This document shows, piece after piece, positions 4,905-64,000 of a stretch of 64,000 nucleotides of DNA. The notes beneath the pieces were generated by a model. The model was not told the DNA's origin. It saw only the letters and a program-made list of their open reading frames with translations, and searched no databases. Origin of the DNA: an uncultured Ignavibacteriota bacterium (GTDB lineage: Bacteria > Bacteroidota > Ignavibacteria > UBA10030 > BY39); assembly GCA_947085285.1 (NCBI GenBank), contig CAMTVZ010000138.1, positions 330 through 64,329 of the forward strand, in the 5' to 3' direction. A program made the position numbers and the translations under genes. The first letter of the stretch is position 1. Each line of letters opens with the position of its first letter.

Positions 4905-5680
4905 AGATTATGCCCCTTTTGACTTGAAGGGATCATACTTTCGAGTTTGGAACGAATAACTGAAGGCGACTCCCCCTGTTGGATAGCTATTACACTAACA
5001 ATATACATTTCTAACATTAATTGTTCTTCTGAATGAATTTGTTTCAACTTGTCGGCAATTGGCAACCAAACCAAATTTGCCATCAACACACCCCAAAGAG
5101 TTGCAACAAAAGCTGTTGCTATGTGTCGAATCAGTTCGTTCGGATCTTCGCCAGCAGCTGCTAATGTAGCAATCAAACCCATAACCGTACCAATAATTCC
5201 CATAGTTGGCGAATATCCCCCCATCCGTTGAAACAAACCAGAACCCTGGGCATGCCTTTCGGACAGGTAGTGGACCTCCATTTCAGCAATAGAGCGTAGA
5301 TCATCGGACTCGGTTCCGTCGATTGCTAATTGTAACATTTTTTTTAAGAATGGACTTTTTATATTTTCTATCTCTTTTTCGAGAACAAGTAAGCCTTCGC
5401 GGCGAGCAATAATTGCATAACTTACTAGTTCATCAATGGTTTGCTGAGTATCAAACCTCAGCGGGCGTATTACAAGAAGAATCAACTTGCCGAACATTAT
5501 AAATTTTTGAAAAGATGTGCCTATCAAAGCTGCGGCAAATGTGCCGCCGAATACTATGATCATTGCGGGCAAAAGAATTAATGCCCCAGTGCTACCACCT
5601 TCCAACATAAAGGATCCGAATATTGAACCGAATCCCAACAACAATCCACCTATTGTCCCTATGTCGTATGTTTTTTTCAT
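4901..5680 (-). CDS. Second stator A subunit (MotA/MotP/PomA-like).
   Basis: The four-TM MotA architecture is present. The conserved C-terminal region reads GIIGTVMGLI...ATLWGVLMANL. Confidence 0.75.
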   Translation of the reverse strand: MKKTYDIGTIGGLLLGFGSIFGSFMLEGGSTGALILLPAMIIVFGGTFAAALIGTSFQKFIMFGKLILLVIRPLRFDTQQTIDELVSYAIIARREGLLVLEKEIENIKSPFLKKMLQLAIDGTESDDLRSIAEMEVHYLSERHAQGSGLFQRMGGYSPTMGIIGTVMGLIATLAAAGEDPNELIRHIATAFVATLWGVLMANLVWLPIADKLKQIHSEEQLMLEMYIVSVIAIQQGESPSVIRSKLESMIPSSQKGHNL

Positions 5681-5681
5681 G

Positions 5682-6572
5682 TTATCTCAAATAGTCTAAT
5701 AATGTTTTGGGAATGATTCGCGCACCAACATTCATTGCTGCTTCAAGTGTCATTTCTTCCTGTTTCAATTTCACGATCGATTCGGCAATATCAGCATCCT
5801 GAAAATCAGAGAGTAATTTCAACAGGTTTACTTTGTTACTTTCAATTTGCTTTTCAAAATTATCGATTGTTTGATTTATTGAACCTAACTTACCCCCGAT
5901 ATCTGTTACATATTTGAAATGCTCTGAAATTGCTTGTATTTCCAGAGCTGTAGGGAGTTGACCGTTAAGCATGTTGTCTCTAATTTGAATCAGGTCGGTG
6001 AATATTTGATTTCCTCGGAAGGCTTCTTGACCGTTGATGTTTACAGTTTGAGATACACCTTCGCCAAAAGCAAATTTAATAGCACCCGATATACCGCTCG
6101 GGTTTACAGAAACGCTCGAACGATCAGCCGCCAAAACAAAAGGTGGTTGCAGGTTTTGTGTACCCCCGAAAATATATTTACCATTAAACTGTGTGTTGGC
6201 AATATGTACCGATTCGTCTAAAAGTTGATCGATTTTTTTGGCATAAATACTTAGTTCGTTCGACTGGGTACCATTCTTGGCGCGAACTAAAAGTTCTTTT
6301 ACTTCAGAAAGGATATTGGTAAAGTTATCGATTGCCAAACTTGTTGCATCGACGAAACTTTTCCCCTCTGAAATATTTTTCATATACTGTTCGGTCCTAT
6401 CGAGGGCACTCTGGAACAAAATTATTTTGTTTGCTGCTTCGGGATCGTCGGAAGGTTTGTTTACCCGTTTCGAGGTAGCAATTTGGGTTTGTAGCATTAC
6501 CAAACGATCGCGGCTACGATTTATGTTAGATAAAAAGTTTGATATAAATTTGTTTTCAGTTATACGCATCAT
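5682..6572 (-). CDS. flgL: Flagellar hook-associated protein 3, FlgL.
   Basis: The N-terminus MRITENKF...TQIATSKRVNKPSDDPEAA is a flagellin-like N domain. It follows flgK. Confidence 0.8.
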   Translation of the reverse strand: MMRITENKFISNFLSNINRSRDRLVMLQTQIATSKRVNKPSDDPEAANKIILFQSALDRTEQYMKNISEGKSFVDATSLAIDNFTNILSEVKELLVRAKNGTQSNELSIYAKKIDQLLDESVHIANTQFNGKYIFGGTQNLQPPFVLAADRSSVSVNPSGISGAIKFAFGEGVSQTVNINGQEAFRGNQIFTDLIQIRDNMLNGQLPTALEIQAISEHFKYVTDIGGKLGSINQTIDNFEKQIESNKVNLLKLLSDFQDADIAESIVKLKQEEMTLEAAMNVGARIIPKTLLDYLR

Positions 6573-41666: not shown

Positions 41667-42164
41667 TCAAATCTCCAGACTGTCTTTAGCTATACTTTTT
41701 TCAGCATTAATAACAGTTACGTTGGCTTCGTAAGCTCGTGAGGCTGAAATCATATTCACCATTTCAGCCACTATGTTTACATTTGGGAGGCGAACATAAC
41801 CGTCTTGGTTCGCATCGGGGTGAGTGGGGTCGTAAACCATTTTTAAATGCGAATCGTCCTCTTCAACCTCTATTTCGATCGATTTTACAGGGTTTTGAGA
41901 AACTGGTGTTTCGATTTCCGCCACTGATATATGATTAGGATTTGTTGTACTTAGCGAAGCGCTATGTTCGCGAATTGTGCTTAGAAACGACTGCTTCGAT
42001 GTTTGTTTTACTTGAACTACTTTTCGTTTGTAAGGCAAACCCTCTTCGGTTCGTGTCGTTTCAGTATTTGCAATATTTTCAGCGATTGCATCCATACGTT
42101 TGCGTTGCACTTTCAAACCGAATGCTGCAACATTTAGCCCGGAAAAAATTTTTTCTAGTTTCAT
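41667..42164 (-). CDS. flgC: Proximal rod protein FlgC.
   Basis: The N-terminus reads FSGLNVAAFGLKVQRKRMDAIAENIANTETTRT. The C-terminus reads VNMISASRAYEANVTVI. Confidence 0.9.
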   Translation of the reverse strand: MKLEKIFSGLNVAAFGLKVQRKRMDAIAENIANTETTRTEEGLPYKRKVVQVKQTSKQSFLSTIREHSASLSTTNPNHISVAEIETPVSQNPVKSIEIEVEEDDSHLKMVYDPTHPDANQDGYVRLPNVNIVAEMVNMISASRAYEANVTVINAEKSIAKDSLEI

Positions 42165-42583
42165 GAATATCCTTTTATACTTTTTTGAATACCTTTAAAA
42201 CTATCGGCAATAATTCGTGCAGCAAACTTAAACCTGATTTGATTTTTTGCTAACTCAGCCATTTCTAAATCGATGTCCACATCGTTAATACCGCTTTTTA
42301 GTTCATTGTCGCTATTCCCCTCCACAGAATTTTCAACTACTTTTGGATTTAGATCCGTAAACTTTGAAGAGTTTATAGGAATATGATCAGGATGAGTGCA
42401 GCCATCTATGTTGGAATTTTTCGACATCGCTAAGTTTAGTTCTTCCTCAAATCTTACACTTTTACTTTTGTATCCTTCTGTAGTAATGTTTGCAATATTC
42501 AATGCGATTGTTTTTTGACGGAGCGAATAAGCATCGAGGGCTTTGCTCAACAACGGTATTTTTGTCTTGTTGAAAATATTCAT
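42161..42583 (-). CDS. flgB: Proximal rod protein FlgB.
   Basis: The N-terminus reads LDAYSLRQKTIALNIANITTEGYK. The C-terminus reads MAELAKNQIRFKFAARI. Confidence 0.85.
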   Translation of the reverse strand: MNIFNKTKIPLLSKALDAYSLRQKTIALNIANITTEGYKSKSVRFEEELNLAMSKNSNIDGCTHPDHIPINSSKFTDLNPKVVENSVEGNSDNELKSGINDVDIDLEMAELAKNQIRFKFAARIIADSFKGIQKSIKGYS

Positions 42584-46790: not shown

Positions 46791-48218
46791 TTACCAACCT
46801 GCCATAATGTTTCGCACAAGTTGCTGTTGTTGAGTAATCATAGATAAAATATTTTGAATCTTATTTAGGTCGTTCCGAAAATTATTTACTTTTTTGTTAA
46901 TCTGTACTTCTGTCAATTTAATCCGGTTGTCGAGATTTTTGATTTGTGTATTAATACCATCGTTTGATTTATCGACAACGCCACCCGAACTTATAAAATT
47001 CTGCAATAAATCTTTCAACCGAACCGCAATTCCATTTGAAGAGTTAAAAAGATCAGTTACCTTATTGGGGTTATTTGTCAGAGCCTCATCTAAAGCTGAG
47101 CTATTGCTTATACTTAAAGTTCCATCTTTAGCAGCGGTTATTCCAATCTGTGATAGAGATCCGGGGTTTTCGGGGTTTAAATTAGTTACAAAACCCTCAA
47201 CAGTTGTTCTGAGTTTTAGTCGAAGATTAATAAAAACAGAATCGCCAGACAATATTTGTCGAACGCCAGTACTACCATCGACTGCAGTTTTAGCTTTAAT
47301 AAACTTTATTACACTGTTATATTCTTCTATAAATTTTTGAATTTTCAATTTTAGCTTTTCTGTGTCACGCATAACACTCAGGGTAATTGGAAGTTCGTTT
47401 TCGCTTTGAACACTTTTCAATTCAAACGTTAGCCCCGAAATTACGTCGTTTACCATATTTGAACTGCGAACTATATCAATACCATTTAATTTAAAACGTG
47501 CATCAAGTTCCGAGACTTGATTGTATAAATAGCCGCCGGCATTTCCGGAGGTTACCGTTCGTGAATTTAGTACCGACTGGCTCAATCCGATGCTACTTAA
47601 TAAACCTTCTCCCGTTTCATATAATGATATTGCATTTGTCGAACCTGTTTCTGTACTGTTCAATACTAGACGGCTCGTCGTGGATGTTACTGCAATAACC
47701 GAAGCTTTCAACTTTAAACCTAACCCATTAACAGCGGTAGAAATTTTTGTCAATACAGAATTATTGGCTTCTCCTTCAGACAAATTAACTGATATTTCTT
47801 TTTCTTGACCGTTAATTGAAACACTAAACAAGTGCGTGCCGGCGCCGGCAGTATCTACGATCGAATTACTGTCCCTTTCTATCGCTCCTGAAATTAGAGA
47901 ATCAGATTTTGCCAAACTGCTTACTGATAAACTATAACTTCCTAAAGCGTCGGCAGATGAAGCAGTAGCCGAAACTACATTAGTGTTTGAAGACGATACT
48001 TTATAGCCGATAAGATTCGTCGACGCTCCATCTACACTCATATCTTTAACCTGGTTAAAGAAGGAATTTAGCTTCATTTTCATTTCAGAAAGTACATTAA
48101 GGCGTACTTTCAATGTGGTCTTTCTATTTTCCAATGAAGTGATAGGTTTACGTAAGCTTAAGCGATACTTTTGAACTAATCCATCGATCGATGCCGACAA
48201 TGATGATACATCAGTCAT
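46791..48218 (-). CDS. fliD: Filament cap protein FliD.
   Basis: The N-terminus reads ASIDGLVQKYRLSLRKPITSLENRKTTLKVRLNVLSEMKMKLNSF. Length is 475 aa. The C-terminal helix is present. Confidence 0.85.
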   Translation of the reverse strand: MTDVSSLSASIDGLVQKYRLSLRKPITSLENRKTTLKVRLNVLSEMKMKLNSFFNQVKDMSVDGASTNLIGYKVSSSNTNVVSATASSADALGSYSLSVSSLAKSDSLISGAIERDSNSIVDTAGAGTHLFSVSINGQEKEISVNLSEGEANNSVLTKISTAVNGLGLKLKASVIAVTSTTSRLVLNSTETGSTNAISLYETGEGLLSSIGLSQSVLNSRTVTSGNAGGYLYNQVSELDARFKLNGIDIVRSSNMVNDVISGLTFELKSVQSENELPITLSVMRDTEKLKLKIQKFIEEYNSVIKFIKAKTAVDGSTGVRQILSGDSVFINLRLKLRTTVEGFVTNLNPENPGSLSQIGITAAKDGTLSISNSSALDEALTNNPNKVTDLFNSSNGIAVRLKDLLQNFISSGGVVDKSNDGINTQIKNLDNRIKLTEVQINKKVNNFRNDLNKIQNILSMITQQQQLVRNIMAGW

Positions 48219-48226
48219 AACTTATC

Positions 48227-48586
48227 TCATCTATTTAATTTAAAAGCATCAACCCAACTTGAGCGGAGTTCTTCAAAAACTAACTCAACTTCCTCGAAAT
48301 TACCTTTACGCAGGCAACGTTTGCAATAATCGTATAATTGGAAAAGTTGAACAGCAATTTCGTTATTATCGAAATTCAGCGAGCTGATAAGTTCGGTTAA
48401 TACACGTTGTGCGAGCCGGAGGTCATGTTTTTTACATGCAACTATTTCGGTGTCGTATAATTTTCTGATCACTTCAACTGGCGAAAGGTTCAGGAGTTGT
48501 TCCTTTTGATAGGTTTTAACTGCCGCTGCAACAATTCCATTTTTCACATTTGATTCGGTGTTATTTATAGTTTCCTGACGATACAT
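48227..48586 (-). CDS. fliS: Flagellin chaperone FliS.
   Basis: YQKEQLL...ELISSLNFD...LFQLYDYCKRCL...SSWVDAF aligns with the FliS family. Confidence 0.8.
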   Translation of the reverse strand: MYRQETINNTESNVKNGIVAAAVKTYQKEQLLNLSPVEVIRKLYDTEIVACKKHDLRLAQRVLTELISSLNFDNNEIAVQLFQLYDYCKRCLRKGNFEEVELVFEELRSSWVDAFKLNR

Positions 48587-48629
48587 TTTATCATTTTATT
48601 AAAGTTAGTTATTGAGTTTAATAAAGAAG

Positions 48630-48671
48630 AAACCCGTCCGATAAAAATCAAATCGGACAGGTTTCTTTTTA
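48630..48671 (-). terminator. Hairpin terminator or attenuator between flagellin and fliS.
   Basis: A 13-bp stem (AAACCCGTCCGAT/ATCGGACAGGTTT, one mismatch) is flanked by T-rich sequence on both strands. It starts 8 nt after the flagellin stop. Confidence 0.5.
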
Positions 48672-48678
48672 CGCATGA

Positions 48679-49503
48679 TTAACGGAACAATGATAAGAAT
48701 ACTTGTGGTGAACTGTTTGCTTGAGCTAATTGAGCTGTAGCAGTCTGTTGTAAGAACTGTAATTTTACTGCAGCGATTTGCTCTTTTGCAACGTCGGCAT
48801 CAAGTATACGGCTTTTTGCAGCTTCCGTATTGGTGATCGCGGTTGTCAGGTTTGTTTCTTTTATCGACAAACGATTAACTGCGGCACCGATTTTTCCGAT
48901 TTCCGCATTAACAGTTTGCAATGCTGTATCAACTGTTAAACCTGCAACGTTAGACCTAGTAATTGAACCACCGGCGGTACCCAACAAAGCAGATGAACCT
49001 ACAGAAGCACCGAAGGCAACTGTGAATATTTCGGTTGAAGCTTCGCCAACCTGGAAATCTACGGAATAACTTCCGTTTAAGAGAGTTGTACCGTTGAATT
49101 TGGTTTGCGCCACGATATCGTCAATTTCTGTTGCTAATTGGTCGATTTCTGAAGCTATTGCGTCTTGCTCGTCGTTGCCCATAGCACCATTGTTAAAGCG
49201 GGCTTGTTTTTCTTTTATTTGAACGAGAATATCGGCAATTGTTTGATAACCACCTTCGGCGACACCATAAACGCTCTGTGCATCTCCAACGTTATCCAAA
49301 GCCATGCTCATAGCACGAACGCGGCCCTCCATTTTCTTGGAAATGACATAACCCGACGCATCGTCGGCTGCTGTGTTGATTCGCTTACCGCTGGCAAGTC
49401 GAAGTTGATGAATTCCCATCTCACGATTTACAGTGTTTAAAGCATTGAGTGCGTTAAATGCAGAGATGTTAGTATTGATTCTTGAACCTGATGAAAATGA
49501 CAT
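48679..49503 (-). CDS. fliC: Flagellin. It is short (274 aa, mainly the D0/D1 domains).
   Basis: The N-terminus reads RINTNISAFNALNALN...LASGKRINTAADDASGYVISKKM. The C-terminus reads AQANSSPQVFLSLFR. A sigma-28 promoter lies upstream. Confidence 0.9.
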   Translation of the reverse strand: MSFSSGSRINTNISAFNALNALNTVNREMGIHQLRLASGKRINTAADDASGYVISKKMEGRVRAMSMALDNVGDAQSVYGVAEGGYQTIADILVQIKEKQARFNNGAMGNDEQDAIASEIDQLATEIDDIVAQTKFNGTTLLNGSYSVDFQVGEASTEIFTVAFGASVGSSALLGTAGGSITRSNVAGLTVDTALQTVNAEIGKIGAAVNRLSIKETNLTTAITNTEAAKSRILDADVAKEQIAAVKLQFLQQTATAQLAQANSSPQVFLSLFR

Positions 49504-51860: not shown

Positions 51861-54374
51861 TTACTTTTTCTTTAGTGAAAATTTTAAGGGTTGATCTAAA
51901 TCTTTTTCAAAATTTATATTCTTTACACCATCAACGAGTGTGTAACCATCCAAGCGAACTTCAATTTTGTGCAAACCACTCCTCACTTTAATTTGAGCCG
52001 GTGTTTGTTTGCCCTCGGATTTATCGTCCACAAATATTTCTGCACGTAGCGGGCTTCCTGCATCATCGAAAGCAGTAATTGTTAAGGCACACATTTTATC
52101 AAAGTCGGCTAATATTTCGAGTGATTCTTCGGCTTTAATATTTATTGATTTTTCCCAAGTTCCGTATTTTGGGTGGGTAATTTTTATTTTACGTGTTCCG
52201 GAAGGAACATCTACATTAACCGGAACATCTGTATCTGATTTTTTTAACTGGTCGTCTACGTAAATCGAACCGTAAGGTTTGGCACGGAGTTTCAACTTAC
52301 CTATCATCGGTACTAAATTCTTACTGATAGTATATGTTTGCTTTTGTAATATGTTGAGAGTTGTGTCGAAATCCTTAAATCCATCCTTTTGCATTTTAAA
52401 TCTATGTCTGCCCGATGCAACCTTTTGGTTCATAAGCGGTGTAACACCAATCTCTTTTCCATCCATAATTATGGGAACACCCACTGGCTGCGAAGTTATA
52501 TTAATAAATCCGGCTGGAGATAATTTGACATCGATGGTTACCGGTTTATTGCCGATTATTCGAACAACCTGTTCGTAATCTTCAAAGTCGGGTCCAGCAA
52601 TGATTTTAATTTTGTGATAACCAGGCTGAATGAGACTATCTCTGTATGGGGTTTGCCCAATTTCCATTTCACCAATAAATACTTTAGCCCCCGGCGGCTC
52701 CGAATTGATTATCAATCTTTCAACCATAGCAGCTGCGCCAGTAGGTGCAAGATTATATCGGAGGTTTTTATTTTCTCCCTGCTTTAAATCAATCTCTTCT
52801 GTTTTTTCTCCATAAATTGGATGGATTACAAGAATGCGATGTTTACCTATTGAACGTTCGATGCTCGCAAGTTGAAAAGGTGGAATTGTATCTTTATCAA
52901 TAACCACGATAGCATCTGGAGGCATTACTGAAATAGACAATATCCCTGATGGTATTAAATTAAAATTTAATTGATAGTGCTGCCCATTGGTGGTAACGAT
53001 AGAAGTTTCGGCTGCGAAGAAATCTTTCTTGTGAACTTTTATTAATAATTTACCCACATCAACGGTGAATTCTTCTAAGGGGGTGTTTTTTCCAGTTGGT
53101 GCGTCGTTTACTGTAACTACGGCTCCGGGGGGTTGGGTGAAAATTGAAATTGTAGTTTTATCGGGTGAAAAAACAAAATACCACAGACCGATTAATAAGG
53201 CTGCAATTCCGAATACTGCAACCCTAATAAACTTTTTAGGGCTTGATAAGAGGGATTCGATTTTTTTACCAAACCAAAAAATAATTGCAGTTGCTAATCC
53301 GGTAAGCAACGAACTTGCAACTTTTTCTTTAGTCTGCTTGGACATTTGGATCCCAACTCCTCGTTTAGGGGCTGACCTTGCAACTGTTTCTTGCCCTGAT
53401 GCTTTTACTCTTATTGTTGTACGTTTTTTTAGAATTTGTGGAATAACAACATTCCATCGAACATCTTTAACATTCGATTTAAAAGTAAGGATTGAAATAA
53501 TTGATTTTAAAAAGTTCTCAATTGAAGAGGGACGTTTGTGAGGGTCAGTCATCAGAGCATTTTCGAGGACTGAGGAAATTCCTGACCACGGCTCGCCTTC
53601 GTTGCGGAAGGAGAGGTCGTATCCTTCTAATAATCTGAATGTTAATGCAGCAATCGAGTAAATATCGGATTGTTCGTTAACCGAATCGCCGCGTTTGTCC
53701 TCGGGCGAATAGTAGCCTTGCTTGATTTGTATGGCTTCGTCGGAAGGTAGATTTTTAAACGGCACTCCAATGTTGGCAAGAGTAACTAATAAATTTCCCT
53801 CATCGTCTAAACTTAGTATGATGTTGCCGGGGGCTAAATCTCTGATCCAAATTCTTTGACTATGAGCGGCTGAAACTGCCTTTGCAACTTGGTTAATTAT
53901 TTTGATTGTGTCGTTGGGCGAGAGGCGGTTTTGTTTATCGAGCACTTCGGCTAATGAAACACCTTGTATTAAATCGGTAACAATATACGGGCGGGGCTCA
54001 TCGTCAACATATGTGGTACCGAAACGAATATTTTGAAGAAATAGATGTCCGGGAAAACGTTCTGACAGGTATTTTAACATTTCAGCTTTAAACTGAAATT
54101 GTTGTGAAACGTTCTCGTTGTAAATTAGCTTTTTGTGTAATACACGGATTGCTACTAATTTATTTTTTTCGGTATCGAATGCCTCGTATGTAGTGTTAAA
54201 ATCGCCCCTGACGAAAAACGAACGCAATTCGTAATTTCCGAAGTATCGCCGAGTTAAAAGATTGAATTCGTCGGTAGAAAGTTTAACCGTAACTTTTCGA
54301 CGTTTATAAAAAATTATTCCTGCCACTAAAACGATTAAAATTCCGAATATTAATATAACTATCCAGATATCCAA
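51861..54374 (-). CDS. Transmembrane Ser/Thr-kinase-like protein with four or five C-terminal PEGA repeats. It is probably a pseudokinase.
   Basis: The N-terminal TM segment precedes a kinase fold in which the catalytic motifs are altered: VAIK reads VAIRVL, HRDLKPxN reads IRDLAPGN, DFG reads NIG. PEGA-like repeats include PPGAVVTVNDAPTG, PPGAKVFIGEMEIGQTPY and SQPVGVPIIMDGKEIGVTPL. Confidence 0.75.
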   Translation of the reverse strand: MDIWIVILIFGILIVLVAGIIFYKRRKVTVKLSTDEFNLLTRRYFGNYELRSFFVRGDFNTTYEAFDTEKNKLVAIRVLHKKLIYNENVSQQFQFKAEMLKYLSERFPGHLFLQNIRFGTTYVDDEPRPYIVTDLIQGVSLAEVLDKQNRLSPNDTIKIINQVAKAVSAAHSQRIWIRDLAPGNIILSLDDEGNLLVTLANIGVPFKNLPSDEAIQIKQGYYSPEDKRGDSVNEQSDIYSIAALTFRLLEGYDLSFRNEGEPWSGISSVLENALMTDPHKRPSSIENFLKSIISILTFKSNVKDVRWNVVIPQILKKRTTIRVKASGQETVARSAPKRGVGIQMSKQTKEKVASSLLTGLATAIIFWFGKKIESLLSSPKKFIRVAVFGIAALLIGLWYFVFSPDKTTISIFTQPPGAVVTVNDAPTGKNTPLEEFTVDVGKLLIKVHKKDFFAAETSIVTTNGQHYQLNFNLIPSGILSISVMPPDAIVVIDKDTIPPFQLASIERSIGKHRILVIHPIYGEKTEEIDLKQGENKNLRYNLAPTGAAAMVERLIINSEPPGAKVFIGEMEIGQTPYRDSLIQPGYHKIKIIAGPDFEDYEQVVRIIGNKPVTIDVKLSPAGFINITSQPVGVPIIMDGKEIGVTPLMNQKVASGRHRFKMQKDGFKDFDTTLNILQKQTYTISKNLVPMIGKLKLRAKPYGSIYVDDQLKKSDTDVPVNVDVPSGTRKIKITHPKYGTWEKSINIKAEESLEILADFDKMCALTITAFDDAGSPLRAEIFVDDKSEGKQTPAQIKVRSGLHKIEVRLDGYTLVDGVKNINFEKDLDQPLKFSLKKK

Positions 54375-54449
54375 GATTTAAATTCTTTCTAATATTTTTT
54401 GAAAAGTTACATTGTAATTTAACATTTTTTAAGGTATTGTCAAATAAAA

Positions 54450-54884
54450 TTAGTACGACTTAGGACTCGATGATAAAGGTTCGATACAGGGTAAATTATC
54501 AACGATCCCCTCGAGGCTATGACTTTGCTGTCTTGCAACACAGTTATCGTAGTCGAACCATTCTAACCGAGAGCGGATTTCAGGATCTTTACCAGCTTCA
54601 ATCGCTTCTTCTATATCTTCCTTCAATTCTCTTACAAGGCGGCGGAAGTCTTCAAAATGCCGTCTTTCGTGGGCTACCACTTCTGCGGCTTCAGTATTGT
54701 TAAGCTCCTCACTGATTAAAATTCGTGTCAAAAATGAAACTGTCAGGATCTCATCCTGCAAACTAGCTTCCCACGTATAATCGAAACAACCTCTATCTTC
54801 ATCAGGCATTATGCTTTGAATCTCGCTTATGCTCACCTTTTCGGGTGAGGGGGCTGTTGTGTGTCCGCTAAAATGTACTTGCAT
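54450..54884 (-). CDS. Hypothetical acidic protein with an HExxH motif, possibly zincin-like (DUF4157-like).
   Basis: The sequence reads VVAHERRHFEDF. It lies downstream of the contractile-system genes. The family call is an inference only. Confidence 0.4.
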   Translation of the reverse strand: MQVHFSGHTTAPSPEKVSISEIQSIMPDEDRGCFDYTWEASLQDEILTVSFLTRILISEELNNTEAAEVVAHERRHFEDFRRLVRELKEDIEEAIEAGKDPEIRSRLEWFDYDNCVARQQSHSLEGIVDNLPCIEPLSSSPKSY

Positions 54885-55082
54885 GAATATAAGTTCTCAA
54901 TTTATTTTATAACAGGTCGACTTTCTTTTAGCGTATGTAGAATCGGCTGCGGTGTAAGCCATTCTTTAACTGGGAATTCTCCTTTGTCCTCGATGTTGAA
55001 TAACATTGATTATTGATGAGAATAGAACTGCACAAAATTTGCAAAAAGAAAATCGAGAATTTAAAAATATTTATTTTATGTT

Positions 55083-56681
55083 TTAACATGCCGGTGAGCG
55101 ACCATAGTGATCAGGATTGGTTATATTTGGAACAACTAAATTACCATTAGCATCCCGCAACTCCCGGCGTACTTCAATTCTCTTTCTTCGTCCTGTAAAA
55201 AGTTTTCTGTATCTTCGACCAGTGAAACTTTGGCGATAAATTACACTCCCATCACGCTGTCGCATCCGTTGTATTTCTCCAGCAGACCATGACCAATTAT
55301 CAAAATCAGTTCCACTAGCGTCTTCTTCATTTCCCCAACCTTCTCTATTCCAAGCCTCTTCAAGCTCTGGGAAAATGTTTCCGTCTTCATCAGGTCTTTC
55401 TTCATAATCAATATACCTATGTATAGAAAAGGTTTGTAAATTGCCGAGGGACCAATTCCATTCATCATAACGAGTTCGAAAAGTGTCATCAGAGTTTTCC
55501 CATCCTTCATCGTCCCAAGCATTCTGCAAATCTTGTAGAAAATTATGATTACGCTCTGGTCTATCGGCGTATCCTATATACATAGGAAGTGATTCAGTGT
55601 CATAACGCTTGCGATATTTTCTATCCCTTAACATTGTTCGCCATTGTTCATCTGTGGCAATATCTGGATATTTTTCTTGGAAACGTGCAATACAAGTTGC
55701 TTCATTCGGTTCAATTGTGCCGGGGACGTAGAAATAAAAGAATTCTATAAAATACTCTTGAGCAGTTACGTTCCCATTCCTACTCTCATATGAATACCAT
55801 TGAATATATTTAGGTGCATAAATAGTAGAACGACCCCCAAAAAGATTTCTTATTTCATCGAGTAATTCTTGGCTATTGCCGAGAGAGCATCCACGAATGA
55901 CTATAGTAGATTCATTATCGAGTTGTGTATCATCTGGTGCTACTAACCTTTCATCCTCAGCATTATCTCTAAGCATTTGAGGAGTTACATGGCGTGTTCT
56001 GGAATCTGCACGGAAGAGCTTAATTAACCACTCTGATTCATTACCATGACTTACAATATTCACTTGTCCCCATGTGCCGTATCCTAAACGAGCTGATTCA
56101 GTGTGAAGATATGTAAATATCTCTTCGACGCTTGAACGAGCAAATACCCCATCAGCGTTTATCCTCCAGTAATGGGAGGCGGCAGTAAAATAACCGCGAC
56201 TTCCGGTAATAAACGAAATAATGGGTCTATCTTGAACAAAATTACGCACAAAAGCGAGTGTCGCAGTACGAAAGCTTTTTCGACGCCCATCAATGCGTCC
56301 GTTTACTTCAAGTTGTATCTCAAAGATTCCCTGCTCTCGCTCATTACGAGCACCTGGAATTGGGAGTTCATAGACTGTATCTTCTGGTTCACCATCAATA
56401 TGTATACGTAATATTGGTGCACCTTCTGCGGCTCTTGCGCGACGTGAAATAGCACCAGTAAATTGCCCATCAACAATTTGACCTGTGAATTCTACAATAA
56501 AATCATCGCTACCTCCACCAGATTCGGTTACAGCTTCACTCCCTCTTCCCCAACGATCAACTTCTTTAAGAGTCAAAACAACATCACTTGCACTATCAGG
56601 TGAATCGAAAATAATTGAAAGAGTTTCCGATAAATTGTTGAGAACCCCGGGATAAAGTATAGCGTGAAATTCACTCATCAC
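55083..56681 (-). CDS. Hypothetical 532 aa protein with two tandem W/D/E-rich repeats and a basic C-terminal tail. It is a candidate injected cargo.
   Basis: The repeats are NAWDDEGWENSDDTFRTRYDEWNWSLGNLQ and EAWNREGWGNEEDASGTDFDNWSWSAGEIQ. Its composition is R/D/E/W-rich, unlike the K/I/N-rich neighbours. Its start overlaps the next gene. Confidence 0.5.
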   Translation of the reverse strand: MMSEFHAILYPGVLNNLSETLSIIFDSPDSASDVVLTLKEVDRWGRGSEAVTESGGGSDDFIVEFTGQIVDGQFTGAISRRARAAEGAPILRIHIDGEPEDTVYELPIPGARNEREQGIFEIQLEVNGRIDGRRKSFRTATLAFVRNFVQDRPIISFITGSRGYFTAASHYWRINADGVFARSSVEEIFTYLHTESARLGYGTWGQVNIVSHGNESEWLIKLFRADSRTRHVTPQMLRDNAEDERLVAPDDTQLDNESTIVIRGCSLGNSQELLDEIRNLFGGRSTIYAPKYIQWYSYESRNGNVTAQEYFIEFFYFYVPGTIEPNEATCIARFQEKYPDIATDEQWRTMLRDRKYRKRYDTESLPMYIGYADRPERNHNFLQDLQNAWDDEGWENSDDTFRTRYDEWNWSLGNLQTFSIHRYIDYEERPDEDGNIFPELEEAWNREGWGNEEDASGTDFDNWSWSAGEIQRMRQRDGSVIYRQSFTGRRYRKLFTGRRKRIEVRRELRDANGNLVVPNITNPDHYGRSPAC

Positions 56682-57123
56682 TTACATTCTCCCATCCTTT
56701 CTGATCAATGTCTCGAATCACTATTTCTTTGCCGCTTTCTTCATCGGTGCTAAGCTGGGTTACGTCTTCATAAGATTCTTCTTGAAATAGCAAATAGTCA
56801 GGTATTCTTATAAGACAACGTATAATATGGGTAGGCGTTGATGGGATAACAGTTGAAAAGCTTCCCTCAATATCAAGTCGATAGTCTCCTGGGGGAACAT
56901 TCTGACACTCGATTAAACCATCTCCATCAGTTCTTCCCTCCACAACACAATTGTTAGGGAGATGAATGCGATAAGATTTATTTGCAATGGGAACAGCCCC
57001 CGAATTACTCTTCAATAAAAGCGAAATATGACTTAACTTTGTCCTTAATATCAATGTATTATATGCATCGATATCATTAGTGCTGAGAGAAATATTTACT
57101 TCTGTATTCATACTAATACACAT
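56671..57123 (-). CDS. Hypothetical protein with a carboxypeptidase-regulatory-like (transthyretin-fold) domain.
   Basis: YRIHLPNNCVVEGRTDGDGLIECQNVPPGDYRLDIEG matches the domain. Confidence 0.45.
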   Translation of the reverse strand: MCISMNTEVNISLSTNDIDAYNTLILRTKLSHISLLLKSNSGAVPIANKSYRIHLPNNCVVEGRTDGDGLIECQNVPPGDYRLDIEGSFSTVIPSTPTHIIRCLIRIPDYLLFQEESYEDVTQLSTDEESGKEIVIRDIDQKGWENVSDE

Positions 57124-57132
57124 TTAAAATAA

Positions 57133-57795
57133 CTAACATCCATAAACTTCTTTTAATTTTGAACATGTTTTTTCATCCAATTGACCATTCGGCGTTAATC
57201 CGTTTTTTCTCTGAAATATCTTTATTGCTGCCTCTGTACGTGGACCTTTGATACCATCAATTGAACCACAGCGATATCCTAAATTTGTGAGTCTCGCTTG
57301 CACTCCTGTAATTTCTTCAATTGGATCAAGAGAGCTTATTTTTAATATCCATGTGTAATTATCACCTAACACATTTTGTTTATTCACGGTTAATTTACCT
57401 TCGGTGATATTCGAAGGAGCTTCGTTTTCAAGTAAGCCTTTATCATTTGTCGTACCATCGAAAGTTTCACTGCCTAACTGTAATTTGTACGACACATTTG
57501 CAAGTGGATTCCCATCTTCATCTTTAAGAATTATTCTCAAATATGTGTGTTGATTTTTAAATTTAATTTTTACTTTCTTCCCTGTATCGATGTTTTCGAC
57601 TTTTGATTTTTTATCTGGAATAACTACTTTGTCACCTGGGAAAATTATATTTGGATTTGGCCTCTTATTTTTTAAATCTTTATTATCTGGATGCTCATAA
57701 ATAGTTTTCCAATTTTTAAACTCATATTTTTTTGCAATACTCGCTAAACACTCCCCTTGTTTTACTATGTGTACTTTGCTCATGTATAGCTCCAA
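57133..57795 (-). CDS. LysM plus peptidoglycan-binding (PG_binding_1-like) protein, as found in phage-tail and contractile injection loci (gpX/Afp7-type).
   Basis: The N-terminal LysM reads HIVKQGECLASIAKKYEFKNWKTIYEHPDN...IFPGDKVVIP. The C-terminus reads ITGVQARLTNLGYRCGSIDGIKGPRTEAAIKIFQRKNGLTPNGQLD. Confidence 0.8.
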   Translation of the reverse strand: MELYMSKVHIVKQGECLASIAKKYEFKNWKTIYEHPDNKDLKNKRPNPNIIFPGDKVVIPDKKSKVENIDTGKKVKIKFKNQHTYLRIILKDEDGNPLANVSYKLQLGSETFDGTTNDKGLLENEAPSNITEGKLTVNKQNVLGDNYTWILKISSLDPIEEITGVQARLTNLGYRCGSIDGIKGPRTEAAIKIFQRKNGLTPNGQLDEKTCSKLKEVYGC

Positions 57796-58440
57796 TTATT
57801 TTATTTCCCATTCTCCGGAATCAATTTCCGGAAAAGTAATTTTACAAGTTCCAGGCTCAACACCTTCGAGTTTTATTTTACCTTTTGCATCAACAACACC
57901 TCTTTTTATAGACCCATCGGGCAATTCAATCTCGTACTTTTCACCTATCATCGGTTTTCCATCTTCATCTGTTACATCAACTTCAATCCAATCAGTTTTC
58001 TTTTTTTCTTCTTTCTTAGAAGATTTCTGTTCAGATTTTTTAGGAGGTGGAGATGAGGTTTTTTTCTCGCTTGATTTTATTTCCGGTTGAGGGGGAACAG
58101 CAAACGGCGGCATAATAACAGGTGGTGCACCCGGCATCACTTCACCTATCAAAACAGTTGGACATCCCACTACAATCGTCCCACCGTGTGCACAACTATC
58201 GCCCATTCGCGCAGCAGGTTTTCCACCAATCATCACACCAGTCGAACCTTTTACAATTACATCTGGCGGACCAACACACGTTGCCATATCGCCCATAACA
58301 GCGGCAGGCAAACCACCGATGAGTACATTAGGAACCCCAGGTCCAGTTATAGGACCACCAACATGTGGAATTGGTGGAACGCCCGGTGTTACCATCGGGC
58401 ATACGTGCATATCACTTATACGTGCGGCTGGTTGTCCCAT
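57796..58440 (-). CDS. PAAR-repeat spike-tip protein with a Pro/Lys-rich linker and a C-terminal domain of about 60 aa.
   Basis: Three PAAR-type repeats are present (GQPAARISD, GLPAAVMGD, GKPAARMGD) with the conserved Cys/His pattern. The C-terminal extension makes it 214 aa. Confidence 0.85.
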   Translation of the reverse strand: MGQPAARISDMHVCPMVTPGVPPIPHVGGPITGPGVPNVLIGGLPAAVMGDMATCVGPPDVIVKGSTGVMIGGKPAARMGDSCAHGGTIVVGCPTVLIGEVMPGAPPVIMPPFAVPPQPEIKSSEKKTSSPPPKKSEQKSSKKEEKKKTDWIEVDVTDEDGKPMIGEKYEIELPDGSIKRGVVDAKGKIKLEGVEPGTCKITFPEIDSGEWEIK

Positions 58441-58454
58441 ATTTAGATTTTAGA

Positions 58455-59315
58455 TTAATTTTTTTCACCAAAAAGTGTATCAACATATTCATCATATTCA
58501 CTCTCAACAATACCCAATCGGTCTTTACCTAAAGAAGCGCGTCCCAAAACAAACCCACTGGTTTCTAATAAAATTTGAATTCGTGCGTGAAAATAAAACG
58601 GCTCGGCAAATTCTACAAGCCGGTACAATTTTTTACTTACACCTGCTTCTTCAGCCCAACCTGCTTCTTGAAGTTTTTCGAGTGTTCTTACATTTATCGG
58701 TCCGATTGTGATGTTGTAAAACTTCGGACGCGACTTGAATTTTTTTCCAAGTACAAAATCTTTCCCGATTGTTGAATGATTATCCTTCTTACCTAATTTA
58801 GATTGAAGTTCGTCCGGGATTGGTCGCTCCTGATATTCTAAATCCTTAACAACGACGGGGACAGGAAGCTGAGTTGAACACTCTAACATCGTGCGAACAA
58901 GTGTAGCAATTCCATCGGTATGTCCCCAGGTTTCGTGTGCATGAACATAATTTTTTAAAAATACTTCAGCTTGATCGTCAGTGAGAGATGAGATGAAATC
59001 TATGTACCATTCGGGACATAACGCTGAGGTATATTGGCGAAGATAATCGGGAATATTTTCGTGCAACGTCTCGAAAGTCTGCGATTGCTCGTCTCTATCA
59101 GCAAACAGACGAGGAAAAGATTGCAAAAGCGCATAACGTGAATGCTCCATGCTGTTCAAGCCCGCATCTTGTATGAGCCGTTCAATTATACGCAAAGCCT
59201 TTACGGCATTTGAAGTTCCGACGGATTCATCCTTATCGAGTAGTCCGATTGGCAGAAGGTCTTCAAGCGAAGCAATCTGAAGTGGAATTTCTATTTTTTC
59301 TATCTCATCCATCAT
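58455..59315 (-). CDS. Putative baseplate protein (TssG/gpI/Afp12-like).
   Basis: It is translationally coupled (ATGA) downstream of the TssF/gpJ-like gene. Position and size fit. I have no motif proof. Confidence 0.35.
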   Translation of the reverse strand: MMDEIEKIEIPLQIASLEDLLPIGLLDKDESVGTSNAVKALRIIERLIQDAGLNSMEHSRYALLQSFPRLFADRDEQSQTFETLHENIPDYLRQYTSALCPEWYIDFISSLTDDQAEVFLKNYVHAHETWGHTDGIATLVRTMLECSTQLPVPVVVKDLEYQERPIPDELQSKLGKKDNHSTIGKDFVLGKKFKSRPKFYNITIGPINVRTLEKLQEAGWAEEAGVSKKLYRLVEFAEPFYFHARIQILLETSGFVLGRASLGKDRLGIVESEYDEYVDTLFGEKN

Positions 59316-60823: not shown

Positions 60824-61286
60824 GTGTTTCCTCGATAATATTCCAAGGACCTATTGTTCCTGCTTTCAGTCCTTTTTCGCTTCTTGATATTTTAAATTTG
60901 TAAACATATTCTTTATTCTCGGTTCGGAATTTAATTCCATTTTCTTCCCGCTCATCGCCAATCAAGTTCACATCATAGATTTCTGCAATATCTCCAAACC
61001 AGTTATTAACTTCGTTTTTAATAATTTGTTCGAGCGACCTGCGTTTGTCTTCTTCCATAATATCGCAGAATCGGGCGCTCATTCCCATATTGTAGAATTG
61101 AACCCACATAGCACGGATACCGGGAGATGGTAATTTGAGATATTCGCCAGCACCTGATAAAACAAATAATCTAAGTCGCGAGCCGACAATATTCTCTTCA
61201 GTACTTGCCCGTTGGAAAGTACCAATCGGCGATAATGTTAATGGAATATGTAAAACTGCCATGTTAATTAATTTGTACCATTGCAC
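60810..61286 (-). CDS. gp25/TssE-like baseplate wedge protein.
   Basis: TEENIVGSRLRLFVLSGAGEYLKLPSPGIRAMW fits the GPW_gp25 signature (eeNI..lL.T..GER...P.fG). It is 158 aa and directly follows VgrG. Confidence 0.55.
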   Translation of the reverse strand: MQWYKLINMAVLHIPLTLSPIGTFQRASTEENIVGSRLRLFVLSGAGEYLKLPSPGIRAMWVQFYNMGMSARFCDIMEEDKRRSLEQIIKNEVNNWFGDIAEIYDVNLIGDEREENGIKFRTENKEYVYKFKISRSEKGLKAGTIGPWNIIEETHDVY

Positions 61287-63021
61287 CTTTGATTACGTTT
61301 GTAGCTGCTGCCGACGATTCGACTTGAGTACCTTCTACCTTTACAGACATTGAAGATTTAAGTTCTGCTGAAGATGAGCCAGCAAGTGTAAGTTTATTGC
61401 CTGCTGTTGCTTCAATATCTTGTGCATTGACTTCAGTTTTGGAAGTTGCAGAAATTTCGATTTTGTCAGCTTTCATTTCAATTTTATCATCGGCATTTAT
61501 TTTTATCGTTTTTGCATGAACTTCCACTGTGCCGTCGCTCGATTCGATGAAGATTTTTGGACCTTTGTGTTCCATCCGTATAAGGTTCTCGCCGTTCGGC
61601 ATGGTGATCAAGATTTGCTCAGAACCTTTTTTTTCAATAACTCGAATTTCCGAGCCGGAAGATGTTTTTGCTATCAGCACTTCTTCAGTACCATTATCTG
61701 TTTTACAATCGGGTTTGTTTTCGCTGTGGTAGAGTGAGCCGATGACTACAGGAAGCGATGTGTTGCCGTGTTCGCATCCCACCAAAACCTGATCGTATAT
61801 GCGTGGAGTAAAGTGCGAGCCGTGGTCCGAACCGGCAAAAGGTGTTAACACACGAGCCCAAGCATGTGCACTCCCCTCTGTATCCCATAGATAACGAATT
61901 TGTACTCTGCCAATATTTGCTGGGTCTTTATTATCAATTACTTCAGCGGGTTGTAAAAGCCCCATATACTCGCGTTCGTCGGTGGCTAATTTGCGCATCA
62001 CAGAATCTTTGACCGCACCTTTGAATGAGGCGTTATAAACATTACCTTTGAATTCGGCTTCTAATTCCACCACCACAAATTTATCTTTCAAGATTGGATG
62101 TTCAGGAGCTTCGATCACACGACCTATCGTAACCATCGGATGATTTGTAGTCCCTGTTACATTTATATGCAAGCCATTATAAAATGCTTGTTGATGCTTC
62201 ACAAATTTTTCAAACTCACTTTTTTCAGTAATTGGTTCTTTGTAAATTTCGGTTGGCTCTTTGTGTAATTCATTCGATTTTTTGAAAATTTTTGAACCGA
62301 ACGGATGATTTGGGGCAGCATAGCTACCAGAGTTCACTACTAAGTCGGACGATTCAGAGTGTTTCTGATAATCATACGGAACTCCGTGGAACCTTGTATC
62401 GCCTAAAAAACAATTCAACCGAACATTAGAAATATTTTCCAACCCTAACTTTACTTCCGTTGTTCCACTCAATTTGGGTTCATATCGGAATGTTTCGCCG
62501 TCGTGGTAAAAAACACAGCCGTCGTAACGTGCAAGCCGCTTTAAGAATTCATAATCAGTTTCGTCGTACTGATGTAAAAATCGAAACTTTACCCCGTCAG
62601 ATGGTCCAGTTAATGAATTTGCAAATGATTTATTTTTGACGATTGTATTCACCACATCGAAGGCAGACATATTGACAAAGGATTTATGTTTTTCGACGAA
62701 GTTAAGAGAATGATCTTCCGACATCGCTTGAATGATAAGATTACCTGTCTCGAGATGAAGGTTGTGTATGATGCCGATGTATTTTTTGGAGATGCTGTTA
62801 TCCAATTGATCTAATACGGTGAGTTCTAATTTTTCGCCGAGCCATAAGGATACTGCTTTATCAAAAACAGAATTACACTCGGCTTCATCGAATCCGAGGG
62901 CAAGTCGTATTTTACAATGCGAAAAAAGTGATTGCCACATGTTGGCGCTAACGAAACGCAAACCGTGTGGCTTTCCGTTTATTGTAGCATTTACAATTAT
63001 ATTAGTTACTTTAGAAGCCAT
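61264..63021 (-). CDS. vgrG: VgrG-like spike protein (phage gpD/gp27 fused to a gp5 OB-fold), followed by a C-terminal beta-helix-like repeat.
   Basis: QYDETDYEFLKRLARYDGCVFYHDGE is the VgrG/gpD hallmark. AEVIDNKDPANIGRVQIRYLWDTEGSAHAWARVLTPFAGSDHGSHFTPRIYDQVLVGCEHGNTSLPVVIGSLY is the gp5 OB-fold. Confidence 0.9.
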   Translation of the reverse strand: MASKVTNIIVNATINGKPHGLRFVSANMWQSLFSHCKIRLALGFDEAECNSVFDKAVSLWLGEKLELTVLDQLDNSISKKYIGIIHNLHLETGNLIIQAMSEDHSLNFVEKHKSFVNMSAFDVVNTIVKNKSFANSLTGPSDGVKFRFLHQYDETDYEFLKRLARYDGCVFYHDGETFRYEPKLSGTTEVKLGLENISNVRLNCFLGDTRFHGVPYDYQKHSESSDLVVNSGSYAAPNHPFGSKIFKKSNELHKEPTEIYKEPITEKSEFEKFVKHQQAFYNGLHINVTGTTNHPMVTIGRVIEAPEHPILKDKFVVVELEAEFKGNVYNASFKGAVKDSVMRKLATDEREYMGLLQPAEVIDNKDPANIGRVQIRYLWDTEGSAHAWARVLTPFAGSDHGSHFTPRIYDQVLVGCEHGNTSLPVVIGSLYHSENKPDCKTDNGTEEVLIAKTSSGSEIRVIEKKGSEQILITMPNGENLIRMEHKGPKIFIESSDGTVEVHAKTIKINADDKIEMKADKIEISATSKTEVNAQDIEATAGNKLTLAGSSSAELKSSMSVKVEGTQVESSAAATNVIKGAMVQIN

Positions 63022-63319: not shown

Positions 63320-63979
63320 TTACTTACTGCCTTCTTTCCAATGCTCAGAATCGGTAGAAACCAGATACATGTTCAATTGGCGAATCGCATTCTTGTATTT
63401 CACATTTATACGAATATCGATAGCCTGATTGTTCACGGAGCCGTCAGGATTGGTAACTACATCAACTCCTTCAACCTTTCCATATTCTAACATCTTAGAA
63501 GGACCGCCGGTATTGTGCATAAGGAATTTCTGAATTGCCGACTGAATCTGGTCACGACTTGACTGCTCGTTTGGAACGAATGTGCGTCCGTTCAGATAAT
63601 GCAGAACAACTTTTGCAATGTACTCATCGCATCGTTTTACGGTGTACTGATCCATTCCTTCATCTCCCTGACCGCTCGCTAAGTATAAAGTATCAACGCC
63701 CCAGAACACAAGACCTTCATAGAAAGCTACGGGGATAAGAGCTTTGTTGAACTTCATCTGTTGACCGCCACGAATATTCCACTTCATTTCTAATGGGGAT
63801 CCATCGGGAGTTGGTATTTTTATTTCGTGCGGTTTATTTGCCTGAGCGATATGGATACCTTCCTTTATATCACCTTTGTATATTTTCCCAGCAAGAATTC
63901 CGGCGGGGTTAATGTACAGGTCGCCAAGTTCCTTTTCGAAGCGATTTGCACGACGAATTCTGAGTGGATTAGCAACCAC
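63320..63979 (-). CDS. Partial gene immediately upstream of vgrG. It is possibly a tube-initiator or sheath-family component. Its 5' end lies beyond the window.
   Basis: The frame stays open to the window edge. The C-terminus reads GVDVVTNPDGSVNNQAIDIRINVKYKNAIRQLNMYL. The call rests on position only. Confidence 0.3.
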   Translation of the reverse strand: MVANPLRIRRANRFEKELGDLYINPAGILAGKIYKGDIKEGIHIAQANKPHEIKIPTPDGSPLEMKWNIRGGQQMKFNKALIPVAFYEGLVFWGVDTLYLASGQGDEGMDQYTVKRCDEYIAKVVLHYLNGRTFVPNEQSSRDQIQSAIQKFLMHNTGGPSKMLEYGKVEGVDVVTNPDGSVNNQAIDIRINVKYKNAIRQLNMYLVSTDSEHWKEGSK

Positions 63980-64000
63980 CGAAATATGTTGCTTTATTGG

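Follow-up and report, generated by a model that had tools for sequence, protein, structure and literature searches.

The window analysed here is a stretch of 64,000 nucleotides (nt) of DNA from an uncultured Ignavibacteriota bacterium, whose nearest database relatives were found to be annotated as Bacteroidota metagenome-assembled genomes (MAGs). On its minus strand, three open reading frames (ORFs) of 150, 532 and 144 amino acids (aa) lie downstream of the gene of a LysM protein and a block of genes of a contractile injection machine, identified below as a type VI secretion system (T6SS; Table 1). These three genes had been put forward as cargo of this machine in a prediction made from the sequence of the window (hereafter the original prediction). 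Their coordinates, the 198 nt that separate the 532-aa gene from the 144-aa gene and the motifs quoted for the three products were all found as described, each motif being located at its expected place. The overlap of 11 nt reported between the 150-aa and 532-aa genes holds for a GTG start, but it amounts to 8 nt (ATGAGTGA) for the ATG one codon later, which is the start used by database gene calls. A scan of positions 54000-58600 for promoters and terminators returned sites no more numerous than in shuffled sequence, with no terminator in the 198-nt gap. Searches of Pfam and NCBIfam gave no significant match for any of the three proteins, in agreement with the earlier statement that none belongs to a described family.

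Table 1. Features of the cargo region and its surroundings (positions are those of the window; values after profile names are E-values)
Feature	Position	Strand	Description
532-aa ORF (531 from ATG)	55083-56681	minus	predicted T6SS cargo effector, large orphan family
N-terminal beta-sandwich of 532-aa protein, residues 1-146	56244-56681	minus	proposed spike-loading domain
Alpha/beta core of predicted toxin domain, residues 147-345	55647-56243	minus	invariant His212 (56046-56048) and Cys265 (55887-55889)
Two W-rich 33-aa repeats, residues 384-416 and 439-471	55269-55532	minus	in variable insert
Basic C-terminal tail, residues 486-532	55086-55226	minus	FTGRRxRIEVRR...GRSP, conserved
150-aa ORF (146 from downstream ATG)	56671-57123	minus	transthyretin-like partner, translationally coupled to 532-aa gene
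144-aa ORF	54450-54884	minus	cytosolic protein, HExxH at 54657-54671; fixed flank of cargo slot
34-codon remnant of transmembrane (TM) + SPOR gene	54902-55006	minus	aligns with first ~32 codons of 180-aa gene of locus L002
LysM / transthyretin-like / PG_binding_1 protein, 220 aa	57133-57795	minus	PG_binding_1 5.3e-14, LysM 2.7e-4; no signal peptide
PAAR spike-tip protein	57796-58440	minus	PAAR_motif 1.1e-23; PF05488
PAAR C-terminal transthyretin-like domain, residues ~150-205	57826-57993	minus	CarboxypepD_reg 0.049; resembles 150-aa protein
TssG	58455-59315	minus	PF06996/TIGR03347
TssF-like, 503 aa	59312-60823	minus	label from gene position only
TssE-like, 158 aa	60810-61286	minus	label from gene position only
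VgrG	61264-63021	minus	PF05954+PF04717/TIGR03361
TssC sheath-protein fragment	63320-63979	minus	PF17541 (Bacteroidota-type model), 1.1e-12; at window's edge
Ser/Thr kinase, six PEGA domains	51861-54374	minus	Pkinase 1.1e-17, PEGA 2.3e-52; downstream neighbour of 144-aa gene

Because TssG, VgrG and PAAR lie in one block, together with a TssC fragment matching the PF17541 model, the machine is assigned on gene content to the T6SS of the Bacteroidota kind (T6SSiii) and not to the extracellular contractile injection systems (eCIS). The eCIS reading of the injection module in the original prediction could not be upheld, given the presence of TssG and TssC and the lack of any DUF4157 match among the scanned proteins of the window. 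The window stops at 64000, still within the T6SS cluster, on a source contig of 64771 bases. A related locus (L004) was found to carry TssC (PF17541), TssD (PF17642) and ClpV.

Seventeen further loci with a member of the 532-aa family were collected by genome and metagenome scans, the genome scan with the alignment of close homologues yielding only four, and their six-frame ORFs were searched with a hidden Markov model of the 150-aa protein. Wherever upstream DNA was available, the ORF immediately before the 532-family gene was found to end in the 150-aa domain, a result that covers at least 12 distinct organisms (window/L001, L002/L010, L003/L020, L004, L011, L012, L014, L015, L016, L018 and L019; further L021/L022, L023, L024, L025 and L026). 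Partner and 532-family genes mostly overlap across these loci, and the organisms carrying them range from 38 to 72 % GC, with Myxococcales MAGs among them. On this co-occurrence the 150-aa and 532-aa genes are regarded as an obligate pair. PAAR and/or VgrG genes were identified upstream of the pair in L004, L015, L019, L023 and L024, showing that it recurs downstream of such genes in unrelated genomes and supporting the proposal that these two genes encode cargo of a contractile machine.

The 150-aa domain was found as a free-standing protein of 140-165 aa (window, L002, L004, L024 and L025), at the C-terminus of PG_binding_1 proteins (L003/L020, L018 and L022) and at the C-terminus of approximately 460-aa OmpA-like proteins (L011, L012, L015, L026 (weak OmpA matches) and L019), with the L019 partner matching both OmpA (2.7e-10) and PG_binding_1 (5e-16). 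No signal peptide or membrane segment was predicted for the partner proteins, the peptidoglycan-binding fusions included. Homologues of the LysM/PG_binding_1 protein occur further upstream in seven loci (L010, which is on the same contig as L002, and L011, L012, L015, L023, L025 and L026). The assignment of the 150-aa protein to carboxypeptidase-regulatory or transthyretin-like domains was found to be weak but consistent. The protein itself matches SpaA at E 0.078 and the homologous domains of partner proteins do so at 0.0019-0.0057, in both cases below the gathering thresholds. It also matches the C-terminal domain of the L004 PAAR protein (blastp, E 1.8e-7), a domain which in turn matches CarboxypepD_reg (3.6e-5, below the gathering threshold), and it is similar to the middle of the LysM protein.

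Additional genes were observed at some of the pair loci. Proteins of the DcrB/PsbP fold lie beside PAAR/effector genes in L004 (11403-11855, E 4e-6) and L024 (4044-4562, E 1e-12), and these may be Eag-like chaperones. In L015, the gene after the effector (5372-6385) looks by eye to encode an FHA-domain protein and is followed by a second PAAR and LysM set, an arrangement that suggests tandem cargo cassettes.

No signal peptide or TM segment was predicted for the 532-aa protein, its sequence gave no match in Pfam, NCBIfam or the Protein Data Bank (PDB), and none was obtained with tblastn against plasmids. From seven sequences, AlphaFold2 (AF2) modelled only residues 1-146 with confidence, as a beta-sandwich. 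The predicted secondary structure of the core alternates between strand and helix. The two W-rich repeats have 15 of 33 residues in common (45 % identity), with a Smith-Waterman score of 103, a value not attained in any of 1000 shuffles (29 +/- 5.7). The repeats noted in the original prediction are thus real, but they are not strictly tandem, as 22 residues lie between the copies; distant homologues possess one copy only. The C-terminal tail is invariant among the close homologues of the protein, of which there are seven. Across the family it was found to be present in 103 of 153 representatives, with conservation of 80 % for R506, 97 % for P518 and 93 % for G527.

A profile search against 1.84 billion representatives (E<=1e-3; clusters at 50 % identity) showed the toxin-domain family of the 532-aa protein to consist of 664 representative clusters. 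H212, C265 and G268 are conserved without exception (143/143 representatives), and Y296 (97 %), A168 (96 %) and D255 (90 %) nearly so in the same set. The His and the Cys are each preceded by a hydrophobic strand (VNIVSHG and TIVIRGC). The N-terminal beta-sandwich was found in 84 of 153 representatives, with the region from about residue 146 onward located behind other N-termini in the remainder (up to 1400 residues, some unknown). Among 65 larger proteins bearing the domain C-terminally, six have an N-terminal DUF4157/eCIS_core (P0169, P0138, P0123, P0142, P0152 and P0130) and one has VIT and VWA domains. The combination of DUF4157 with a C-terminal toxin is an architecture described by Geller et al. 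for eCIS toxins (PMC8213781). The joining of one C-terminal domain to differing N-terminal delivery domains is typical of polymorphic toxins.

The only recurrent Pfam signal in the family was DUF4347 (PF14252), matched by 3 of 35 members, and the 532-aa protein of the window was itself without a match to it. One of the matches aligns residues 63-135, with both the His and the Cys inside, to profile positions 44-116 of 164 (14.7 bits, cut-off 24.6). The family resembles DUF4347 and clan CD (caspase/CHAT-like) in having His-Gly and Gly-Cys, each after a hydrophobic strand and 53 residues apart, in the strand/helix alternation of the core and in the coverage of the His-to-Cys stretch by the DUF4347 match. 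It is unlike DUF4347 in that every match is below threshold (E 0.016-0.03, the best being 0.016). A possible likeness of the His/Cys motif to that of clan CD cysteine peptidases would fit the residue pattern of the sequence and its invariance. The most likely enzyme class of the toxin domain is that of the cysteine hydrolases (peptidase or amidase), and its Cys and His may be arranged in a caspase/CHAT-like manner; we infer both this catalytic assignment and the fold of the core. For one protein with DUF4347, PA0256, secretion as a substrate of a T6SS has been proposed (PMC8262886). Other identities considered for the His/Cys pair, namely CX5R phosphatase, sortase, papain/NlpC-P60 and L,D-transpeptidase, were set aside by reasoning on residue order or predicted secondary structure.

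Sister loci (L005-L009) were reached via homologues of the 144-aa protein and were found to have the order VgrG-TssE-TssF-TssG-PAAR-(variable)-142 aa-kinase-190-427. Identity between the window and L005, L007 and L008 is 88-94 % for VgrG, TssE, TssF and TssG, 83-87 % for PAAR and 84-86 % for the kinase. The LysM gene, which carries PG_binding_1, was placed inside the variable region and not among the parts of the machine, its product being only 31-57 % identical to that of sister loci, compared to about 88 % for core genes, yet 82 % identical to that of L002. The genes after it are unrelated to those of the window, encoding proteins of 767 and 528 aa in L005-L007 and of 342 and 223 aa in L008/L009, with the full variable sets reading 251+767+528 aa and 219+342+223 aa. 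Since the core genes are kept while the stretch from PAAR to the 144-aa gene is replaced, this stretch constitutes a variable cargo slot, and the region that begins with the LysM gene and stops short of the 144-aa gene (54903-57795) is identified by these alignments as a cargo island swapped between close relatives.

The block of PAAR, LysM, 150-aa and 532-aa genes was found at 82-86 % identity in another genomic context in L002, where a 180-aa TM+SPOR gene and then housekeeping genes come after it. The 34-codon remnant of this TM+SPOR gene in the window (Table 1), together with the end of homology to L002 roughly 18 nt upstream of the 144-aa start codon (ATG), is read as the scar of a recombination junction at the right-hand edge of an acquired cassette, and as such is direct evidence of acquisition. 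The original prediction had also proposed horizontal acquisition, on the grounds that the 532-aa gene is visibly more GC-rich. Acquisition is supported by the scar and by the L002 block, but the GC argument for it did not hold. The gene is marginally richer in GC than the window (0.408 compared to 0.378), but other genes have similar or higher values (VgrG 0.401, TssG 0.404, PAAR 0.443 and flagellin 0.433). Its GC content at third codon positions (0.255) is among the lowest of 14 genes compared, with only the LysM gene (0.249) being lower. As this value is low, the GC excess stems from R, D, E, G and W codons and not from foreign codon usage, and the comparison gave no foreign signal.

Alternative cargo was observed in the same slot. 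In L008 (6215-7967) and L004 (12825-14700) it consists of a 342-395-aa protein with His and Cys motifs of its own (VVYSGHA and HFGCST) and a 217-223-aa protein, the L008 copy of which has a lipoprotein-like N-terminus. The two proteins are conserved between the distant L008 and L004 (E 5e-50 and 1e-26) with no Pfam match, and they are likely to be an effector-immunity pair in which the 223-aa protein would provide immunity. A third cargo type (L005 4110-6386, also L006 and L007) consists of a 758-767-aa protein, with a weak C-terminal match to reprolysin-like metallopeptidases (E 0.003), followed by a 528-aa protein. A relative of the 758-767-aa protein in a Myxococcales MAG (L013 5616-7997) also possesses PG_binding-like repeats.

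The 144-aa protein has 15 homologues at 51-81 % identity, all of about 142 aa. Conservation of its HExxH motif was borne out, with H72, E73 and H76 invariant in all 15, as are D79, D111, D113, N114, H122 and C133. Its AF2 model is confident (predicted local distance difference test, pLDDT, 92). In it, two long helices come after a small beta-sheet, and the HExxH lies close to where the first of these helices begins. Foldseek with this model against the PDB returned nothing with E <0.3, and the protein had no Pfam match at E<=0.1. The suggested likeness to DUF4157 was found to be limited to the five-residue motif, with hhalign of the family against seven DUF4157 segments giving a probability of 3.6 % over 13 aligned columns. 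The 144-aa gene is in no other pair locus, but sister loci whose cargo is wholly different have it beside the same kinase, and the three genes are consequently not a conserved trio. As the gene stays by the kinase whatever the cargo, it is a fixed flank of the slot and not itself cargo, contrary to what had been predicted. It is only 61-76 % identical to its orthologues in L005, L007 and L008, compared to 84-94 % for the genes either side; this divergence does not track cargo, as L005 and L007 possess the same cargo with identities of 61 % and 76 %. The product is a conserved cytosolic protein, probably zinc-dependent or zinc-binding, and a role in regulation or cargo processing would be a guess. 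When set beside the ImmA/IrrE-type (M78) zinc peptidases (CapP, PprI), it differs in that about 65 residues align with no sequence or Foldseek match, and in being half the size and lacking a helix-turn-helix or partner domain.

The PEGA kinase next to the 144-aa gene (51861-54374) adjoins the T6SS block in all sister loci and may be a PpkA-like firing regulator. Downstream of it are two further genes, followed by flagellin and FliD. Flagellin, FliD and flagellar rod genes (46791-49503; 41667-42583, minus strand) were observed less than 3 kb from the T6SS-associated block, with a sigma-54 response regulator and a PAS histidine kinase between the two. Flagella in a lineage labelled as Bacteroidota would point to an Ignavibacteria-like organism.

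The pair was also identified in an archaeal setting. L003 (9186-11383) is on a 257-kb contig with genes for fibrillarin, Nop5, a CTP-dependent riboflavin kinase and an archaeal-type prolyl-tRNA synthetase around the pair, and L020 (6153-8479) is from an independent 321-kb assembly of the Joint Genome Institute that is identical downstream to L003. Both have a PG_binding_1-transthyretin fusion followed by the 532-family gene, with no T6SS genes near the pair. The accessions of the archaeal contigs are GCA_024256265.1 and Ga0315314_1000012. The GC content of the pair (0.448) compared to that of its flanks (0.37-0.39) fits acquisition from bacteria.

The reading that we consider probable is that of a T6SS cargo island, in which the 532-aa protein would be an effector composed of a loading domain and a His/Cys toxin domain, the 150-aa protein would be its obligate partner and the 144-aa protein would stand outside the module. 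The beta-sandwich of residues 1-146 would serve as the loading domain of the effector, and the C-terminus of PAAR, the middle domain of the LysM protein and the 150-aa protein may form a chain of related transthyretin-like modules that loads the N-terminus of the effector on the spike tip. The partner would be fired together with the effector and hold it on the target cell wall. In other lineages the partner is repeatedly joined to peptidoglycan-binding domains, of three kinds and all without an export signal, from which we infer that it is co-delivered with the effector and that the site of action is the target periplasm, where a cell-wall or periplasmic substrate would fit.

Several observations weigh against this reading. 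The core of the 532-aa protein was modelled with a pLDDT <50, leaving it with no enzymatic fold assigned, and PDB searches with the single protein, a 7-sequence profile and a 35-sequence core profile gave chance matches only. All-against-all comparison identified no downstream ORF family common to loci of different organisms, save one that is non-adjacent in L015, and neither an intact gene in the 198-nt gap nor an immunity gene in the window was found, an atypical situation for an antibacterial T6SS effector. The DUF4157 fusions would imply eCIS delivery into the target cytoplasm, a poor fit with a cell-wall target. Lastly, the pair is carried by an archaeon without a T6SS, so that T6SS loading cannot be the only role of the partner.

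The chief rival, which we regard as unlikely, is that the 150-aa protein is the cognate cytosolic immunity protein of a 532-aa toxin that acts in the target cytoplasm. The 150-aa gene is the only one that always co-occurs with the effector, to which it is translationally coupled, there is no other immunity candidate, and its product is without a signal peptide and has an acidic tail, that of the effector being basic. Retention of the domain in an archaeal genome without any T6SS, and cytoplasmic delivery as implied by the DUF4157 fusions, also favour immunity. However, the gene is upstream of the effector, the usual position of an adaptor and not of an immunity gene, its product is homologous to the C-terminal domain of PAAR, and the repeated peptidoglycan-binding fusions would be pointless for a cytoplasmic inhibitor. 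Another proposal, to which we likewise give a low probability, is that of a cell-wall toxin of two components that is independent of any one secretion machine, in which the transthyretin-like subunit would bind peptidoglycan, be delivered along with a new Cys/His hydrolase and dock it on the target sacculus. Such a toxin would be used by bacteria of several phyla that possess a T6SS and, captured by an archaeon, would be a weapon against bacteria; no immunity protein would be needed, since the hydrolase would be active only in a foreign wall or if docked from the outside.

Peptidoglycan-remodelling and anchoring accessories, of which TagX and TagL are known for other T6SSs, provide a further model, whereby the module is not a toxin and assists the T6SS or another envelope structure in crossing the producer's own wall. 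The LysM, PG_binding_1 and OmpA domains around the pair and the lack of an immunity gene are consistent with this. It is nevertheless very unlikely, as without export signals the periplasm of the producer cannot be reached by Sec, close relatives with the same machine swap the module for unrelated cargo, the domain is fused to eCIS toxin markers, and the pair occurs in an archaeon; archaea are not known to possess bacterial-type murein. That the 532-aa protein is a non-enzymatic structural protein decorating the spike, with His and Cys binding metal or stabilising the fold, is highly doubtful. It has no recognisable catalytic fold, and some Bacteroides effectors are needed for spike assembly (PMC13402684), both of which count for a structural role. 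Against such a role, 143 very diverse sequences agree fully in the His, Cys and Gly and almost fully in the Asp and Tyr, and the domain is reused behind unrelated delivery domains, both features being typical of a toxin active site. The original prediction, that all three genes are effectors trailing an eCIS operon with the HExxH protein as a DUF4157-like companion, is largely refuted and now most improbable. It is true that the genes close a contractile-system block at its 3' end, that the HExxH never varies, and that the 144-aa gene always abuts the cargo slot and diverges faster than its neighbours (61-76 % compared to 84-94 %), but the presence of TssG and TssC, the absence of the 144-aa gene from the pair elsewhere and its lack of detectable homology to DUF4157 all contradict it.

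With the cargo-island reading, the analysis delineates a large family of toxin domains not represented in Pfam or the PDB, which has H212, C265 and D255 as catalytic candidates and would be delivered by T6SS and, through the DUF4157 fusions, by eCIS. If it does serve as an adaptor or in targeting, the transthyretin-like partner would add a new class of such proteins to the Bacteroidota-type T6SS. The sister loci furthermore provide a clear natural case of the exchange of cargo cassettes, in which the scar of the junction can still be seen.

In comparison to known systems, the 532-aa protein would found a new effector family, with an obligate partner, of a known T6SS cargo type. What is unusual is the lack of an immunity gene and the presence of signal-less peptidoglycan-binding partners, one of them in an archaeon. 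The eCIS toxins with N-terminal DUF4157 are similar in that the toxin domain of the 532-aa protein occurs behind DUF4157 in relatives, and differ in that the protein of the window is without DUF4157 and is attached to a T6SS. Spike-borne transthyretin-like domains have been described to recruit effectors, either directly or via adaptors, in VgrG1-Tle1 of enteroaggregative Escherichia coli and VgrG2b-Tla3-Tle3 of P. aeruginosa (PMC6560169, PMC7376260). As in those systems, the effector gene of the window lies a short way downstream of the spike genes, a transthyretin-like domain is located at the C-terminus of a spike component, and a small dedicated partner gene precedes the effector. In contrast to them, the transthyretin-like domain is on PAAR and not on VgrG, the partner is itself transthyretin-like and not DUF2875, DUF4123 or DUF1795, it is elsewhere fused to peptidoglycan-binding domains, and the toxin domain is unrelated to lipases and has no immunity gene. 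Among the closest known systems is also the cargo complex of the Bacteroides fragilis T6SSiii, in which BtpeA-BtaeB-BtapC is carried on VgrG (PDB 9jdh, 9jg8).

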